DNA of 64,000 nucleotides, taken from the IMG/VR virus record IMGVR_UViG_3300035498_000327, positions 1 through 64,000 of that record. One strand, written 5' to 3'. A program made the position numbers and the translations under genes. The DNA is from a virus (Duplodnaviria; Caudoviricetes). Below are positions 6,524-36,072 of this stretch, piece after piece; the first letter of the stretch is position 1; every line of letters starts with the position of its first letter. The notes under the pieces were generated by a model. It was not told where the DNA came from. It saw nothing but the letters and a program-made list of their open reading frames with translations, and did no database searches.

Positions 6524-8744
6524 ATGCTTGGATACAATAGCGTTATATCAGAGATAGATAGACTCATTGAGTCAAACCATTATTCCACTATCGATGAACT
6601 GCTTGAAATGGCTAACGATGTAATGGAAGAGGCTGTGCTTACAGAGATCGAGTATAACAAGGTAGTCAAACACCTTAAGCTTGAGATACTTGATATAGAC
6701 AGATTTGTATCTGCTAATGATTGTAAGCAGGTCACTAACCCAGTATTCTTTATTCGGAACAACATTCCTACAGATGATGGGTTACTGTCTAATACTATCT
6801 TTGGAATTACGAGAGATGATAGAGCTGGAATCTATGCTTACATTGACTTAGGAGGATGGTTTATAGACCCATCTTGTTATAAGACATGGATAAGAATGGA
6901 CTCCCACATTAAAGAAGTCATCCATGGGCTCGATACTTATACTGTGAATGAAGCAGGGGAGATAGTTCCTAGTGCTAGTGGCAGTAATGGTATAGACTTC
7001 ATCAAGAAGAATATAAATAAGATTAAGTTTAAGTCTACTGACTCTATCAAAAGAGACTTGAAGATACAGTACTTAGAGAAGAACAAGAACAGAATGTTTA
7101 TCAACAAGTATCTTGTCATACCACCATTCTATAGAGATACTAACACCGGTAAGAATGGTACTGTAGGTGTAGGTGGTGTGAATGTATTATATCGTAATCT
7201 TATCTTAGCAGTACAGGCTCTTAACTCTACACAAGATTATGGTTTCGACAACACTGGTACACTTAGAGCAAGAATCCAAGAAATACTTATGTCTATATAT
7301 GACTGGTTCTGTGGCAATACTAATGCTACTTCCTCTGTAGAACCAGGAGTAGGTATTGCCGGTAAGAAGGGTGTACTTCGTATGGCTAATATGAGTAAAA
7401 CAACTAACTATTCTTCTAGAATGGTTATAGCCGCACCGGAGTTAAAAGCAGAGACTGTAGACGACATGATGGTTAACCAAGAGCATACTGCTTTACCATT
7501 AGCCGCTTGCTTAGCTAACTATAGAAACTATATCATCTTTAACGCTAAGAGATTCTTTGAGCAAGAGTTCATCGGTAATGAGCAATACTTAGTGGTAAGG
7601 AAGAATGGTAAGAGAGAGTATGTGAATATGAAAGATCCCCTTATGGAATTCTCTGATGAGAAGATAAAGAGGGAAATGGACCGTTTCTTACACGGATATA
7701 ACAACAGATTCGTTCCGATATCAGTACCCTTAGAGGATGGAACTACTGTATACATGGCATTTAAAGGTAAGTTTAATAAGCCTGGAGAAGGCGAAGAGAG
7801 CTTATGTAAAAGAAGACTCACCTGGTGCGACGTATTCTATATCAGTGCAGTAGAAGCAGTCAGAGATAAGAATATTCTCATAGTAAGATATCCTGTACAG
7901 ATTGAAATCTTAAGACCTGCAGCATAACCTAAACCGAAAGGCATGGTATGAAAAACCCATCTAATGCTGGGAGAGGATAATGCTCATATGGCTATACTCA
8001 TAGTAGTCGAAAGACAGAAACAAATGTATGAGATTTCTATATGCTGAAAAGCTAAGTAGAATATGTAATTCCTTAATCAGCAGCGAAGTTAAACTTATAG
8101 TTTAATGTGCTCACAGATCATCGAAAGCTAGATACTCTTCATTGTCAGAAATGGCTAAACGCGAAACTCGGGAAGAGTTGAGAATAAGGTATAGAGATAT
8201 ACACGAAGCGAGTAGAGTAGAGCCTTATATAGGTACGGCATCCTGATATCAAGTAAGTCCGTTTAAATCGAAATGGTGGGATTAGGTATAATATGGTAAC
8301 AGTATATACCTAGTGTGATATGATCGGCATAAGTAAAATATGTGAGATAGTTATTTCAATCAGATAACAACGAAAGCAGTAGTGTCTTCTACTAAAGAAA
8401 CAGAGCCTATGTATATAGACGGTAAATACTATCCTTATTACCCTAAGATAAGGGAAGAGGATATAGGGTCTAATACCGGTAATACTTTCGTTGACACCCT
8501 TAAAATGAGTAACTTATACTTGGACGGTATGGGGGGGGACTATGATGGAGATACCGTTACGGCTAAGTCTCCTTATACGATTGAGTCTAATCAGGAGTTA
8601 GATGAGTTCATGAACTCTAAAGCTAACTTTATTAACTTAGGCGGTAATAACGTTAAGATAGTTAAGGCTGATACAGTACAGTCACTATACTCCCTTACTA
8701 AAGTACTTGATAAGTCTAAGCTTAAAGATCCGGTATTTGAATGA
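6524..8744 (+). CDS. Multisubunit RNA polymerase beta' N-terminal/catalytic subunit, spliced: join(6524..7896,8345..8744), 590 aa
   Basis: Motifs DGLLS..IFG, VIPPFYRD, GKKGVLR, NYSSRMVI, VRYP in exon 1; GGDYDGD catalytic motif in exon 2. Splicing restores RYPV-DSYFNQ in frame (1773 nt). Confidence 0.9.
7897..8344 (+). ncRNA. Group I intron (ORF-less, IA-like), 448 nt
   Basis: 5' exon ends in T and intron ends in G. IGS GCAGCAT (7919-7925) pairs with ATCCTGT. P3 CCCATC/GGTGGG; P7 CAGATCA (8114-8120)/TGATCG (8321-8326) with bulged A; AATCAGCAGC Q element. Confidence 0.88.
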
Positions 8745-27108: not shown

Positions 27109-27930
27109 ATGATTCCAAAGAATATTGGGTATATTATCTGCGAATCTGATATCACCTCGGCTGAGGTGACTAATGTCGTTGGCAATACGAGTGGAAAGAT
27201 CATTGCTGAAGGCATTATTCAGACAGCGGATGAAAGAAATAGAAATGGAAGATTCTATCCTAAGGAAGAACTGTTTCCTCAGCTTGTAGCACCAAGAACC
27301 CTTGAGCTCTTGAATGCTGGATACTTAAGAGCTGAGATGGGCCATCCATTATCAAAAGAGCTTATTAGACAGCAGACTATTGATGATACAAGAACTTGTG
27401 CTAGATTCCTTAAGTTATGGACAGAAGGGCTTAATGTATGGGCACGGTTCACCGGTACCAACAATGAGCATGGTAAGGCATTCATGGCTGACTTAGCAGA
27501 AGGATGTAAGCCTGCATGGTCCTTGAGAGCTTTAGGTTCTATCGAAAACACTAGAAGAGGTGCTGAGGTAAGAAACCTTAAGGTTATCACATGGGACCAG
27601 GTTATCTATCCATCTCACCCTGGAGCTTATACACAGCGTATAGTGTCTGAGTCTGCCGGAGTTAGAGACTTTGATACAAAGGGAGAATCACTTATTATTC
27701 CTTTGACTAATAAGCAGGTTCTCAACTACATTAGATCGGAGTCAGCAAACCTTAAGTTCATGACAGAATGCTTCGACTTCATGTATGACAGTATCAATAT
27801 CAATGAGAGTAACTCTACTGTTACACTTACCGGAAAAGATGGAGATATCATGGTAGTGAATCTTGAGACTCATATCCACAATGAGATCATGAATTACTGT
27901 TCTGAGGTAGCTTCATACTTTGAGAAATAG
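27109..27930 (+). CDS. Prohead core protease (T4 gp21-like)
   Basis: ADERNRNGRFYP, AEMGHP, WSLRALGS, TWDQVIYPSHPGAY. Confidence 0.85.
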   Translation: MIPKNIGYIICESDITSAEVTNVVGNTSGKIIAEGIIQTADERNRNGRFYPKEELFPQLVAPRTLELLNAGYLRAEMGHPLSKELIRQQTIDDTRTCARFLKLWTEGLNVWARFTGTNNEHGKAFMADLAEGCKPAWSLRALGSIENTRRGAEVRNLKVITWDQVIYPSHPGAYTQRIVSESAGVRDFDTKGESLIIPLTNKQVLNYIRSESANLKFMTECFDFMYDSININESNSTVTLTGKDGDIMVVNLETHIHNEIMNYCSEVASYFEK

Positions 27931-30071: not shown

Positions 30072-33000
30072 ATGATACTTACAGAGAGTAACACAATAGC
30101 AGCATATAAGAAAAGTATGTCTGATTGTGTTAGATTGTTTATGCCTTATGTATCAGAAGAAGACTTAAGTAATGTACTAGATTACTCAGTACAGAAGCGC
30201 TTCAGAGATGCAAATTGTAAGGTGGTCAACTCATATACGAATAAGACTGCCGACATGACACTCTTAGCAGTGTCGGACTATATAATGAAGAGAGAGCCTA
30301 TAGTCACAGCATACGGTACTATGTTTAGACATCATGGAACTGTGCCTAATCCATTAGCAGCTGTAGTGCAAGGCTTTCTTGACAAACGTTCAGAAGATAA
30401 AGCAATGATGTTTAAATTTCCAAAAGGTTCAGAGGATTTTGAGAAGTATAACCTGCTACAGTCCTTAACTAAAAAGGTCCAGGGACATATGGGAAGTGAT
30501 TCTCATATACAAACTGTCTTAACGGCTGGAAAGCTCTAATGACTAAATAGCTACAACGTAATGAGAGATCATAAGCGTGAATGCGACCGAAAGGTAGAAA
30601 GAATATTTAGTATAAGTATATGGTGATAGTAAGCCTAAGTACTTGAATAATGAGTAATCAGCTTCTAAGTTTTAGTTGATTCAACTATTAAAAGATCAAC
30701 GACTATCGAAAGGTAGACAACCATGCAGTAGAAATACGAAATAGAGTGTAGCTTAAATTTGGAATCTAGGTGGTTTGAGAATAAGGTATAGAGATATACA
30801 CGAACTGAGTAGAGTAGAGCCTTATATAGGTTAGTATTAGAGTGAGATTAGCTCTATGTGAATCTATTAAATCGAAAGAGACAGTATCTCTGTGATATGG
30901 TAACAGTATCACAGAGATAAAAATATAGTCTAAGTGTAAACGTGGACAAGATAGATGCCAACGGTATGAAGATAGATACAACTATTGAATTGCTGCCTGG
31001 GCTCGAAAGGGTCAAGTGATAAGACCAAGAAATTCTCTGGGACGGGCTAAAGATCTAAGTGCCTCTTATTGAGGAAGCGAAAGCGAAAAGTCTAAAGACT
31101 TAGATATGGTATAAGGTGATAGTAAGCCTAAGTACTCTTCATCAAAATGCCCTACCAGCAGCCAGCCTAATGTGAGAGCATTAGTAGGTTCATCGACTAA
31201 GAATTTTTGGCGTCGGCTATCATTCATGATAGTTTTCTGTAGGGTACAAGCGTATCCGAAACCTGGTCTACCTAAGTGAGCTTAGGCTCATATGGTAAAG
31301 ATATAGTCAGTGCTAACGAGAAATACGTTAGAAGGTTAGATAGTAGCGCATCTAATCGCAACACAACAGATTTATGGCGTACTAGGTATGTATACAAGTC
31401 TAGTATACAATATCAATACAGCAACTAGTATTACATCACAAGGTAGAAGCCTTGTATCTTCTATGACAATGTTCTTCGAGAGCTTCTTAGCGAACAATGT
31501 GAAGTTTGGAAGCATAAACGAAGTTCTTACTTTTATCAATAACGTGAAGAGTGAGAGGCCTAATAGGAAGTATAACGATTGGGTCGTATTAGACAATCCT
31601 AATATATCTGTAGCAGACTGTTTTGTTAAGGTAGTAATGAGCTGTGGATATAGATGGATTCCAGATGATAATGAGTTAGAGATTATCTGGCAGGCTATAC
31701 AGAACTTATGTCAGGAAGACATTAACAGGGTATACTATAAGAACAACTTGTATGAGTTTATGGAAAACAGTACACTGAGGAGAGCTGTAAAAACTATTAT
31801 GCTTAGTCTTAAGGAGCCATTCATGAATCCTAATAAGCCTCCGAAGAATGTGATTCCTATGCTCGATGAGTTGACTGAGCTGATGAGAGAGTATGTATAC
31901 TATCGGTATATGTATATAGACAGAATAGACAGATGTGATAATATGATCAAGTCTGTTACTCTTGTGTCCGATACAGATAGTACTATTATATCTCTTGATG
32001 CTTGGTATAGGTATAACCTTGAGCATCTTAAGGATGTAGACTTCCCTATCAAGAAGATAGTAGAAGATCCAATATACCAGATAGAAAGAGATGAGTTTGG
32101 AGATATTGTTGATAAGAACTATCTGAATCCAATAGAAGAAATAGAGGTGAAGTACGATTACGATTTCTTCTCAGATGAGTTGATTGAGCTGGAGCATACT
32201 ACAAATCCATTAGTAGTATTACCTCAGGACAATATACGGCATAGTATTCTCAATATACTGGCTTATGTATTAGATAAGCTAGTGAATGATTATATGATGA
32301 AGTATTGTTTCAATAACAACTCATACAGAAATGATGAGATTAGAAAGTGTAAGATCATAGCTAAGAATGAGTTTCTCATGAAGCGACTTCTAATGACACC
32401 TGTTAAGAAGTCTTACGCAACGTTGCAAGAGGTGCAAGAAGGTAATCTGGTACCACAAGATAAGCAGCTTGATATCAAAGGTATTGCTTCTATGGCTAAA
32501 TCTAGTATGGCTGAGAGTACTAGACATGCACTTAAGAAGATATTGTATGAGGATATCATGAATACTCCAGTGATAGATCAGTTCAAGATAATAAAGCATG
32601 TTGCTATACTGGAGAAGCAGATAATCAATTCCTTGTATGATGGGTCTAAGGAGTTCTATAGACCAGTAACAATCAAGTCAATGTCTTCATACTCAGATCC
32701 AATGAGGATTCAAGGTATCAAAGCATCTGTTGTATGGAATGCCTTAAAGGATGAAGCATTGCCAGCCATCAATCTTGATGAAAGGAATGCTGTAGATATA
32801 GCTAAGGTTAAGATAACACCTAATACATTGCTGGAAATCAAAGAGAAGCATCCAGAGGTGTATGAGAAGGCTTCAGAGTTACTTAAAGAGAAAGCTTTCA
32901 AAGGTTGTATAGACAGTATAGCTATTCCATTAGACACAGAAGTGCCAGAGTGGTTACTTGATCTTCTTGACTACAATACAATCGTAAATGATAACGTGGG

Positions 33001-33079
33001 TGGTTTCGTTTACGATAGCGTAGGTATAAAGAGGTTCGGAAGAACAAGGGTAAACTATACAAACATCTTACAATTATAA
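30072..33079 (+). CDS. Family B DNA polymerase, palm/thumb half of a split enzyme, spliced: join(30072..30465,30943..30965,31370..33079), 708 aa
   Basis: Splicing yields QSLDKIDANGIYG (motif B, Q-x3-K-x3-N-x2-YG); motif C is SDTDS; the 2127 nt are in frame. Confidence 0.9.
30466..30942 (+). ncRNA. Group I intron (ORF-less, IA-like), 477 nt
   Basis: IGS GGGAC (30482-30486) pairs with exon end GTCCT including the U.G pair; P3 ACTGTC/GACAGT; P7 ACGACTA (30699-30705)/TAGTCT (30926-30931); terminal G. Confidence 0.9.
30966..31369 (+). ncRNA. Group I intron (ORF-less), 404 nt
   Basis: Exon ends in T and intron ends in G; P7 TCGACTA (31193-31199)/TAGTCA (31304-31309); canonical S element AAGATATAGTC; P3 GACCA/TGGTC. 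P1 pairing is less clear. Confidence 0.87.
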
Positions 33080-34748: not shown

Positions 34749-34914
34749 CGTCGTCGGTGTTTGTATATATAAACACATAAGGAGTAAAGGAGGAATGTAG
34801 TTTATAGTTCCAACTGAATAGTGTGATATATTGGCCGAAGGTGTTATAATAGTACACCTTCGGCTTTTATATGATAGAATAAAAATTTTTATATCCAAAA
34901 GGAGGACAAAGACA

Positions 34915-36072
34915 ATGAATGAAAACATGAAAGCACTGATTATCGGTGTAGGAGCAGCAGGAAACAAGGCAGTGCTCACAGTACAGCAGATGAATGCGGA
35001 GATCGCGTTAGAAGATATCATCCTTGTAAACAGTACACCAAAAGATATACCAGCTGATTTTGCTGGTACCAGCATTATCATCAGCCCAGATGATTCTGGC
35101 TGTGGTAAAGAAAGAACCATTGCTAAAGAGTTTACCCTTACAGCAATCCAGTCCGGTAAGTTTGACATCGCAGAGAAGGTAGAGAGTTATGATATAATCA
35201 TCATTGTAACCTCACTTGAAGGCGGTACTGGATCTGGTTCTGCTCCTATAATTGCGAAGTACTGCAATGAGGTACTTGGCAAGAATACTCACCTTATCGG
35301 ATTCACTGGATTCGAGGAAGACGCCAGAGGCTTACAGAATACAGTAGAGTTCTTCCAGGAAGTAGGTAGCAATATCATGGTTCAGTGTATCCAGAATAAG
35401 TCTTTCCTTAAGAGCTGTGGAGGAAGCAAGTTCAAGGCAGAGCAGGCAGCAAACCGTGAGCTGGCAAACAGAATCAGAATCCTGGATGGAAGTTTATTAA
35501 GAGCCTCCGAGCAGAATATTGATTCTACAGATATCTACAAGGTGGTGAACACTAATGGTTATATGACCATTGAGTCCGAGACAATCAAGGGTTCTCTTGA
35601 TGATGTCTCTAACTTCAACAAGCTTTGTGAGATGATGATCTACAATAGTAAATCTCTCAAGAGCTCTGATCCTGGTCAGGTACGTATGGCTGTTATCATG
35701 AATATCAGCCCTGTATCTGAAGACTTTATCGACAGTAACTTTACACTGTTGAAAGATGCATATGGATATCCTTATGAGTGCTTCATGCATAAACAGTATG
35801 ATGAATCTCAGCCGGAGTACATAGCTTTCATCTCTTCTGGACAGAAGATGCCATTAGATGAGGTTAAAGCAATATACGACAGATACGTTGAAGAGTCTAG
35901 TAAGGTCAGCAGATCTAACGACAAGTTCTTCGACGAAGTAGCCGGATTTAAAGGAAACAAGGACGATAACAAATTTAATATGGGTCGTCCTACTCAGAAG
36001 ACCACAGTAAATAAAGCGGATTTCATGAAGCAGTTCCAGACGAAACCGACGAAAAACGAAAAGAAGGGATAA
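34915..36072 (+). CDS. phuZ: Tubulin/FtsZ-family GTPase (PhuZ/TubZ-like)
   Basis: IIGVGAAGN, VNST, GCGK, EGGTGSG signature; GGAGG SD before ATG 34915. Confidence 0.88.
   Translation: MNENMKALIIGVGAAGNKAVLTVQQMNAEIALEDIILVNSTPKDIPADFAGTSIIISPDDSGCGKERTIAKEFTLTAIQSGKFDIAEKVESYDIIIIVTSLEGGTGSGSAPIIAKYCNEVLGKNTHLIGFTGFEEDARGLQNTVEFFQEVGSNIMVQCIQNKSFLKSCGGSKFKAEQAANRELANRIRILDGSLLRASEQNIDSTDIYKVVNTNGYMTIESETIKGSLDDVSNFNKLCEMMIYNSKSLKSSDPGQVRMAVIMNISPVSEDFIDSNFTLLKDAYGYPYECFMHKQYDESQPEYIAFISSGQKMPLDEVKAIYDRYVEESSKVSRSNDKFFDEVAGFKGNKDDNKFNMGRPTQKTTVNKADFMKQFQTKPTKNEKKG

Follow-up and report, generated by a model that had tools for sequence, protein, structure and literature searches.

A gene coding the catalytic subunit of a family B DNA polymerase is split into three exons in a stretch of 64,000 nucleotides (nt) of viral DNA (positions 1 to 64,000 of the IMG/VR record IMGVR_UViG_3300035498_000327, hereafter the window). 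The interruptions are very probably two separate group I introns of IA type, devoid of open reading frames (ORFs), which lie 23 nt apart in the sequence coding motif B of the polymerase and which have independent origins and splice independently. The window covers the first 64 kb of a contig of 72.7 kb and represents a genome fragment of an AR9/PBS1-like jumbo phage.

The split polymerase gene and its micro-exon

All features described here are on the plus strand of the window. Exon 1 (30072–30465; 131 codons and one base) ends at T30465 and is followed by intron 1 (30466–30942), a micro-exon of 23 nt that ends in T (30943–30965), intron 2 (30966–31369) and exon 3 (31370–33079; 569 codons and the stop). 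The scripted join of the three exons gives an open frame of 2127 nt, 708 codons and the stop, whose product reads ...LLQSLDKIDANGIYGVLGM... across both joins. Its closest full-length relative, the intron-less metagenomic homologue P0002 (708 residues), is identical over that segment. The exon 3 product starts with IYGVLG, the end of motif B, carries motif C as SDTDS and matches the Pfam families PF20286 divDNApol (1.2e-24) and, over its residues 1–39, PF00136. Its tblastn matches, at 27–29% identity, are the proteins named “DNA-polymerase catalytic subunit” in Bacillus phages AR9/PBS1 and in Staphylococcus jumbo phages. The search with this protein retrieved 1439 relatives. Exon 1 aligns with the amino terminus of AR9 g152, the product of an uninterrupted gene (641 residues), and with that of 40 full-length homologues (~700–750 residues). 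The alignment of these 40 proteins is free of gaps over both joins and all of them keep the micro-exon peptide, (L)DKIDANG. The BLASTP alignment of the spliced product to AR9 g152 runs end to end (8e-72) and has no gap in residues 127–183, which span both joins.

Motif B of family B polymerases has the form K-x3-N-[SG]-x-Y-G. Its Lys, Asn, Tyr and Gly are all found at the correct spacing in the spliced product, with the Ser replaced by Gly. The segment DKIDANGIYG aligns with KLLANSFYG of AR9 g152 and, via P0002 (E ~1e-3), with YKIVANSVYG of the solved poxvirus family B polymerases, the latter alignment being restricted to this segment of the fingers. Since DKIDANGIYG falls on the poxvirus sequence in this way, the micro-exon holds the Lys and the Asn of motif B.

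This arrangement had been proposed by a sequence-only reading of the window, made without database searches: a 23-nt exon that carries the motif B Lys and Asn and is flanked by two ORF-less group I introns, exon-U/intron-G at both junctions, a motif invisible to ORF callers and a frameshift if the exon is skipped. The follow-up agrees with it on all these points. The coordinates (30466–31369) are exact; the junctions are U30465/G30942 and the micro-exon T/G31369; the public gene call of the window contig, P0001 (538 residues; window 31388–33079), begins at an internal Met of exon 3; and omission of the micro-exon shifts the frame and leads to a stop ~20 codons past the join.

The boundaries are set by relatives that differ in intron content. 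Related loci (numbered L) came from IMG/VR, JGI/ENA metagenomes and gene look-ups; the distance between the exon 1 end and the exon 3 start was measured in each contig and the sequences were then read. Both introns, with the 23-nt exon between them, are present in the window, L005 (~87% protein identity) and L054 (~70%). Site 2 alone, where the insertion follows the GGT codon, is occupied in L003, L014, L023, L029, L044, L051, L052 and L053, and site 1 alone, where it lies inside the Leu codon, in L040 and L049. About 20 loci are uninterrupted. As relatives display all four states of occupancy, both boundaries are fixed to the base, and the alignment of L003, L005, the window and intron-less loci puts the insertions exactly at 30466–30942 and 30966–31369. 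The pair is not a twintron (nested intron) because the 23 nt between the introns are coding and contiguous with both flanks in intron-less relatives. An assembly artefact was rejected, the same layout being found in the independent assemblies L005 and L054, and an intein was rejected given the stops in all frames. Note that L044 carries a further group I intron in its polymerase gene (L044:2609-2944; Rfam RF00028, 42.8 bits), downstream of the motif B site, so that this gene has at least three intron sites over the clade.

Structure and conservation of the two introns

Both insertions carry the core of a group I intron. They feature a P1 with the U·G pair, P10, the helices P2–P9, the P3/P7 pseudoknot and a terminal G. 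The core helices were located by script in every intron copy at both sites. Intron 1 (477 nt, no ORF, terminal G30942) has a P1 formed by the last five bases of exon 1, GUCCU (30461–30465), and the guide GGGAC (30482–30486); it consists of four Watson-Crick pairs and the U·G wobble at the splice site, and had already been recognized in the sequence-only reading. Directly 5' of this guide, the P10 guide GUCCA (30477–30481) pairs with the first five bases of the micro-exon, UGGAC (30943–30947). The core is completed by P2 (30487–30495/30500–30508, with a GUGA loop), P3 (30514–30519/30879–30884), P4 (30524–30529/30658–30663), P6 (30664–30666/30693–30695), P7 (30701–30705/30926–30930) and P8 (30887–30897/30907–30917). 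A long insert of P7.1/P7.2 type (30706–30878, 173 nt) lies between the P7 5' strand and the P3 3' strand.

Intron 2 (404 nt, no ORF, terminal G31369) uses the last four bases of the micro-exon, CGGU (30962–30965), which pair with the guide GCUG (30992–30995) in P1, and its P10 guide UGAAU (30986–30990) pairs with AUUUA at the start of exon 3. The guides of both introns were checked by script. The helices are P2 (30997–31004/31009–31016, with a GAAA loop), P3 (31022–31027/31264–31269), P4 (31037–31040/31155–31158), P5 (31044–31047/31149–31152), P6 (31161–31163/31187–31189), P6a (31167–31172/31179–31184), P7 (31195–31199/31304–31308), P7.1 (31217–31223/31226–31232), P7.2 (31242–31247/31252–31257), P8 (31270–31272/31294–31296), P8a (31276–31280/31287–31291), P9 (31313–31318/31326–31331) and P9a (31336–31341/31350–31355). 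Its most conserved segments (UCAUCGACUA and AGAUAUAGUC) match the RF00028 model, including the J6/7-P7 and J8/7-P7 consensus. Both window introns have helices between the P7 5' and the P3 3' strands (P7.1/P7.2), a feature of subgroup IA, and the compact intron of L044 has two hairpins. The two introns are thus IA-like, of the phage type.

The pairings are maintained while their sequences change. At site 1 covariation is found in P1, P10, P2, P3, P6 and P8 among the window, L005, L049 and L040. Exon and guide are both altered in L049 and the pairing is kept (P1 AGCCU/GGGCU, P10 AUCUA/UAGAU); P3 differs in each lineage and is always paired (CUGUCU/AGACAG in the window, CCAUUC/GGAUGG in L049, CCUCUU/GGGAGG in L040); for P6 the window has UCU/AGA and L005 has AGG/UCU. 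P7 (GACUA/UAGUC) is invariant among these four loci and hence uninformative on covariation. At site 2, in eight aligned homologues, 90.1% of the cells are paired, versus 28–38% when the 3' partner is slid, and 33 of the 73 pairs are altered on both sides; the observed values were reached in none of 500 shuffles. A first MAFFT alignment (A1), in which the short L044 intron was misplaced, was left out of the counting. In alignment A2, L014 and L023 are one or two columns off at P3, which lowers the P3 count; those P3 helices were script-checked.

Candidate tertiary elements are found in both introns. A hairpin of intron 1 (30619–30639) has strands UAUGG and CCUAAG, matching the canonical 11-nt receptor of GAAA tetraloops. 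It lies within a 28-nt stretch that blastn finds in intron 2 (31109–31136; 27 of 28 positions identical), and its exact 21-mer occurs twice in the window and never in shuffles. A second 11-nt receptor-like motif (CCUAAG...UAUGG, 31271–31295) lies in P8 of intron 2 and is kept in seven of the eight site-2 introns of alignment A2. Several GAAA loops are present in both introns. The UAUGG/CCUAAG motifs are therefore putative tetraloop receptors, a role suggested by the published motif.

The search with group I models, put forward as a check along with the sequence-only reading, gave a divided answer. The gathering cut-off of RF00028 is 50 bits. The introns located at the same sites in L049 (site 1, 53.8 bits) and L044 (site 2, 100.1 bits), which are more compact, are above it. 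The window copies are below: Rfam yielded no match on the whole window at the gathering threshold and intron 2 alone at E ≤ 1, and a RF00028 profile search of the window's own contig gave no match at E ≤ 1. The window copies have large peripheral inserts, which the RF00028 model penalizes.

Several points weigh against two active introns. Intron 1 gives only two partial matches to RF00028 (15.3 and 12.8 bits), and intron 2, which matches the model in full with 23.5 bits (E = 0.0017 locally and 0.09 window-wide), also falls short of the cut-off. P1 of intron 2 has four pairs, two of them wobble, and its P10 has five pairs that need a 1-nt spacer. Folding to the minimum free energy recovers many of the same helices in both introns; it is supportive for intron 1 (P2, P3, P4 and P8 recovered; z = −2.7) and not significant for intron 2 (z = −1.1). 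The phage is uncultured and the contig covers just an estimated ~29% of its genome. Self-splicing is predicted from structure and from the conservation of an essential gene. The one public RNA run found, a gut metatranscriptome (X1; 5% of sampled words), has no bearing on splicing either way: it gave five short contigs, of which one maps exactly to exon 3 (31945–32152), several match intron pieces at 90–95% identity, and none contains the joints.

Part of these points would also suit dead insertions, that is, introns that no longer splice in a gene that is now a pseudogene, or that require a protein cofactor or maturase from elsewhere. The sub-threshold Rfam scores, the absence of ORFs from the introns, the short P1 of intron 2 and the small part of the genome in hand speak in that direction. 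Such decay is very unlikely, as the core helices are all intact, with compensatory changes preserving them from lineage to lineage, the exons are open and clearly conserved at the protein level, the twin layout is found in three independent assemblies, and the single divDNApol match in the contig is this very gene.

Predicted splicing and probable origin of the intron pair

In the proposed mechanism each intron would fold as its own ribozyme and would select its splice sites by its own internal guide, through the P1 and P10 pairings detailed above. Two self-splicing reactions initiated by guanosine triphosphate, in any order, would ligate the three exons, and the mature messenger RNA would code the 708-residue polymerase subunit with K-x3-N-G-x-Y-G intact. 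Since each ribozyme needs just its own few exon bases, either intron could go first. The sequence-only reading had supposed instead that the two splicing events are ordered and that exon skipping might serve as a regulatory checkpoint. Order finds no support, each intron using its own exon bases and occurring alone in relatives.

A checkpoint of this kind is possible in principle because exons are skipped in other phages. Regulated alternative splicing would imply that the two ribozymes cooperate or compete, so that the micro-exon is left out of some transcripts and the inactive product, frameshifted and soon terminated, tunes the supply of polymerase. Precedents include orf142 of phage Twort, which reportedly skips a 23-nt exon between two IA2 introns (PMC10136302, PMC11878797), as well as phage SIOphi, which skips an exon in about half of the transcripts, and engineered tandem Tetrahymena introns, which skip a 24-nt exon (PMC10136302, PMC11878797). 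In favour of this reading, P7 is also identical in the two window introns. However, the two introns of Twort closely resemble one another, whereas those of the window share just 28 nt and a weak 25-nt match, and the elements that define each ribozyme do not cross-pair: the P3 5' strand CUGUCU of intron 1 does not pair with the P3 3' strand UGGUCU of intron 2, the guide GCUG of intron 2 does not pair with the exon 1 end UCCU, and the P10 guide GUCCA of intron 1 does not pair with the exon 3 start AUUUA. This lack of cross-pairing between guides and between P3 strands favours exon inclusion, as do differentiated splice-site recognition elements in the tandem Tetrahymena intron experiments (PMC10136302). 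Moreover, each intron is found alone in relatives, which makes a coupled function unnecessary. Skipping with a regulatory role is accordingly improbable for this pair and no sign of a checkpoint was seen here; the simplest reading is that of two selfish insertions made harmless by splicing.

Neither window intron has an ORF with a Pfam match and neither qualifies as a carrier of a homing endonuclease gene. Such genes are present in the P6 loop of relatives, namely NUMOD4 and HNH_3 in L040 at site 1, HNH_3 in L029 at site 2 and NUMOD4 in L051 at site 2. The intron ORFs of L040 and L029 indicate that mobile versions exist at both sites. Tandem duplication of one intron was rejected, as introns 1 and 2 share only the 28-nt stretch and, more weakly, the 25-nt one. 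Two intron lineages, whose relatives carry HNH genes in P6, would each have homed to one of two neighbouring sites in highly conserved DNA, and the copies found in the window would have lost their endonuclease ORF or never had one, ORF-less forms having been captured. The pair most likely arrived and splices independently, because the guides and the P3 helices differ and each intron occurs singly elsewhere; two independent homing events are the simplest account.

Sequences related to these introns are found at other places. Unannotated stretches of three other phages resemble parts of intron 1. One separates the RNA polymerase halves in Pseudomonas phage EL, where a HNH gene is adjacent, and one follows rpoB in Listeria phage LPJP1; the third, in a Kayvirus, is located downstream of the tail sheath gene, between the tail sheath/“virion protein 5” genes and the next ORF, and has 75% identity over 107 nt with part of intron 1. 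A likely third group I intron is located in the window itself (7928–8381, plus strand), between the ORFs 6524–7927 and 8382–8744 of a RNA polymerase beta'-like gene, the downstream ORF encoding GGDYDGD. It has a weak RF00028 match (7965–8117, 17.3 bits) and is identical to intron 1 at 55 of 57 nt (8178–8234 versus 30775–30831). A relative of intron 1 (70% identity over ~300 nt), with different P3 and P7, is found in another gene in L013:1-560, L017 and L018; L018, which has an ORF without Pfam match in the P6 loop, is on the same contig as the twin-intron locus L005. Finally, L052 and L054 have in their site-2 introns a segment of the P5 extension, AAUAGCUACAAC...GUGAAUGC, that in the window is found in intron 1 and that is also present in Pseudomonas phage EL. 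This shared segment indicates that modules are exchanged between the two intron lineages.

The presence of HNH-bearing introns at both sites in related phages raises another explanation for the twin layout. Each ORF-less intron would destroy the site of one of the two HNH endonucleases, and the pair would have been selected as a double shield of the polymerase gene in co-infection. I-PfoP3I does not cut intron-plus DNA, in which its target is disrupted (PMC3428280), an intron HNH endonuclease confers a competitive advantage among jumbo phages (PMC11620839), and twin occupancy is seen in three lineages (~70–87% protein identity). Nevertheless, cleavage by the putative HNH enzymes of these relatives is presumed by analogy, I-HmuI and I-HmuII also cut intron-plus DNA (PMC3428280), many relatives thrive without introns, and protection would follow automatically from homing with no need for selection. 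Selected protection is thus conceivable and rather doubtful, less so than decay or skipping. The same degree of doubt applies to the broader proposal that selection keeps the twin layout, be it as a double shield against HNH endonucleases or as a splice-dependent brake on polymerase supply via micro-exon skipping. Independent homing and splicing of two introns stays the preferred account.

Genomic context, known systems and significance

The 72.7-kb contig did not yield the amino-terminal half of the polymerase, with its exonuclease and motif A. In AR9-like phages this polymerase is encoded in separate pieces. Upstream of the polymerase region the window codes a prohead core protease (27109–27930, plus strand; Pfam Peptidase_S77, 1.7e-10). 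A few genes downstream is a tubulin/FtsZ-like gene (34831–36072, plus strand), separated from the polymerase by a gene coding a SLT lytic transglycosylase-like protein; L051 and L054 have PF00091 Tubulin in the matching position. In L029 a cluster of six tRNA genes (L029:4289-6248; Rfam tRNA, 39–66 bits) is found downstream of the polymerase gene.

The closest precedent for the intron pair is orf142 of Staphylococcus phage Twort, the tail tube gene, whose introns 2 and 3 flank a 23-nt exon (Landthaler & Shub 1999, as reported in PMC10136302 and PMC11878797). The two systems have in common two phage group I introns, presumably IA2-type in the window, in one protein gene with an exon of exactly 23 nt between them. 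They differ in the host gene, which in the window codes the motif B region of a family B polymerase, and in the introns, which in Twort are mutually highly similar and lead to exon skipping, whereas those of the window, known here from sequence, differ in guides, P2, P3 and periphery. A very short exon (34 nt) between two group I introns is also described for the 23S ribosomal RNA of Coxiella burnetii (cited in PMC10136302), but there the gene is a bacterial ribosomal RNA gene and the introns are of different subgroups (IB2 and IA3).

IA2 introns coding HNH endonucleases are known within DNA polymerase genes of the phages SPO1 (I-HmuI), SP82 (I-HmuII), Bastille (I-BasI) and Pf-WMP3 (I-PfoP3I) (PMC3428280). 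Like the window introns they interrupt a replicative polymerase in its conserved fingers region, and relatives of the window introns carry HNH ORFs (HNH_3/NUMOD4 in P6) as the SPO1-type introns do. Those polymerases belong to family A and have one intron each, in contrast to the two ORF-less introns in a divergent family B gene found here. Bastillevirinae phages have polymerase genes with 2–3 introns, a small exon in phiNIT1 rNDPL and the exon skipping of SIOphi (PMC11878797). They too accumulate several group I introns in a single core replication gene, and it took RNA sequencing to reveal the small internal exons; they are Herelleviridae of ~150 kb, with other genes and sites, whose splicing was shown experimentally.

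Among AR9-like jumbo phages, AR9 and MarsHill/Madawaska/Machias are rich in introns, including in polymerase genes, and their RNA polymerase genes are also split (bioRxiv 10.1101/2020.12.14.422802). Their DNA polymerase is of the same type as that of the window (27–29% identity), where the RNA polymerase gene also has a likely intron. In the MarsHill annotation, the gene of the polymerase catalytic subunit is split by an intron or introns. AR9 g152 is uninterrupted, whereas the gene of the window, from an uncultured metagenomic relative, is split by two introns. The twin sites in motif B and the micro-exon are not described in that report (bioRxiv 10.1101/2020.12.14.422802). No new principle emerges: there are documented precedents both for introns in phage polymerase genes and for two group I introns placed in tandem about a 23-nt exon. 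The novelty lies in the gene that hosts the introns and in their location, the motif B sequence of a divergent family B polymerase, as well as in the well-defined range of alleles, empty, single and double, among uncultured relatives.

The split has consequences for annotation of this polymerase family. Gene callers drop the first 170 residues of the window protein, motif B among them. Full-length proteins with motif B make up 60 of the 120 closest protein clusters; in 53 others the protein starts past the motif, and in seven it starts at the peptide of the micro-exon. With 53 and seven of 120 clusters shortened, a large share of the database entries of this family is truncated by unrecognized introns; interruptions at both sites appear to be common and routinely mis-annotated. 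Two intron lineages with HNH-bearing members, whose sites are 23 nt apart in an essential catalytic motif, could serve for work on homing, on competition between sites and on possible protection in co-infection between jumbo phages. If the layout is selected, it would provide a natural system for following how introns compete at adjoining sites of an essential motif, in which all four states of occupancy, with and without endonuclease genes, coexist among related uncultured phages.

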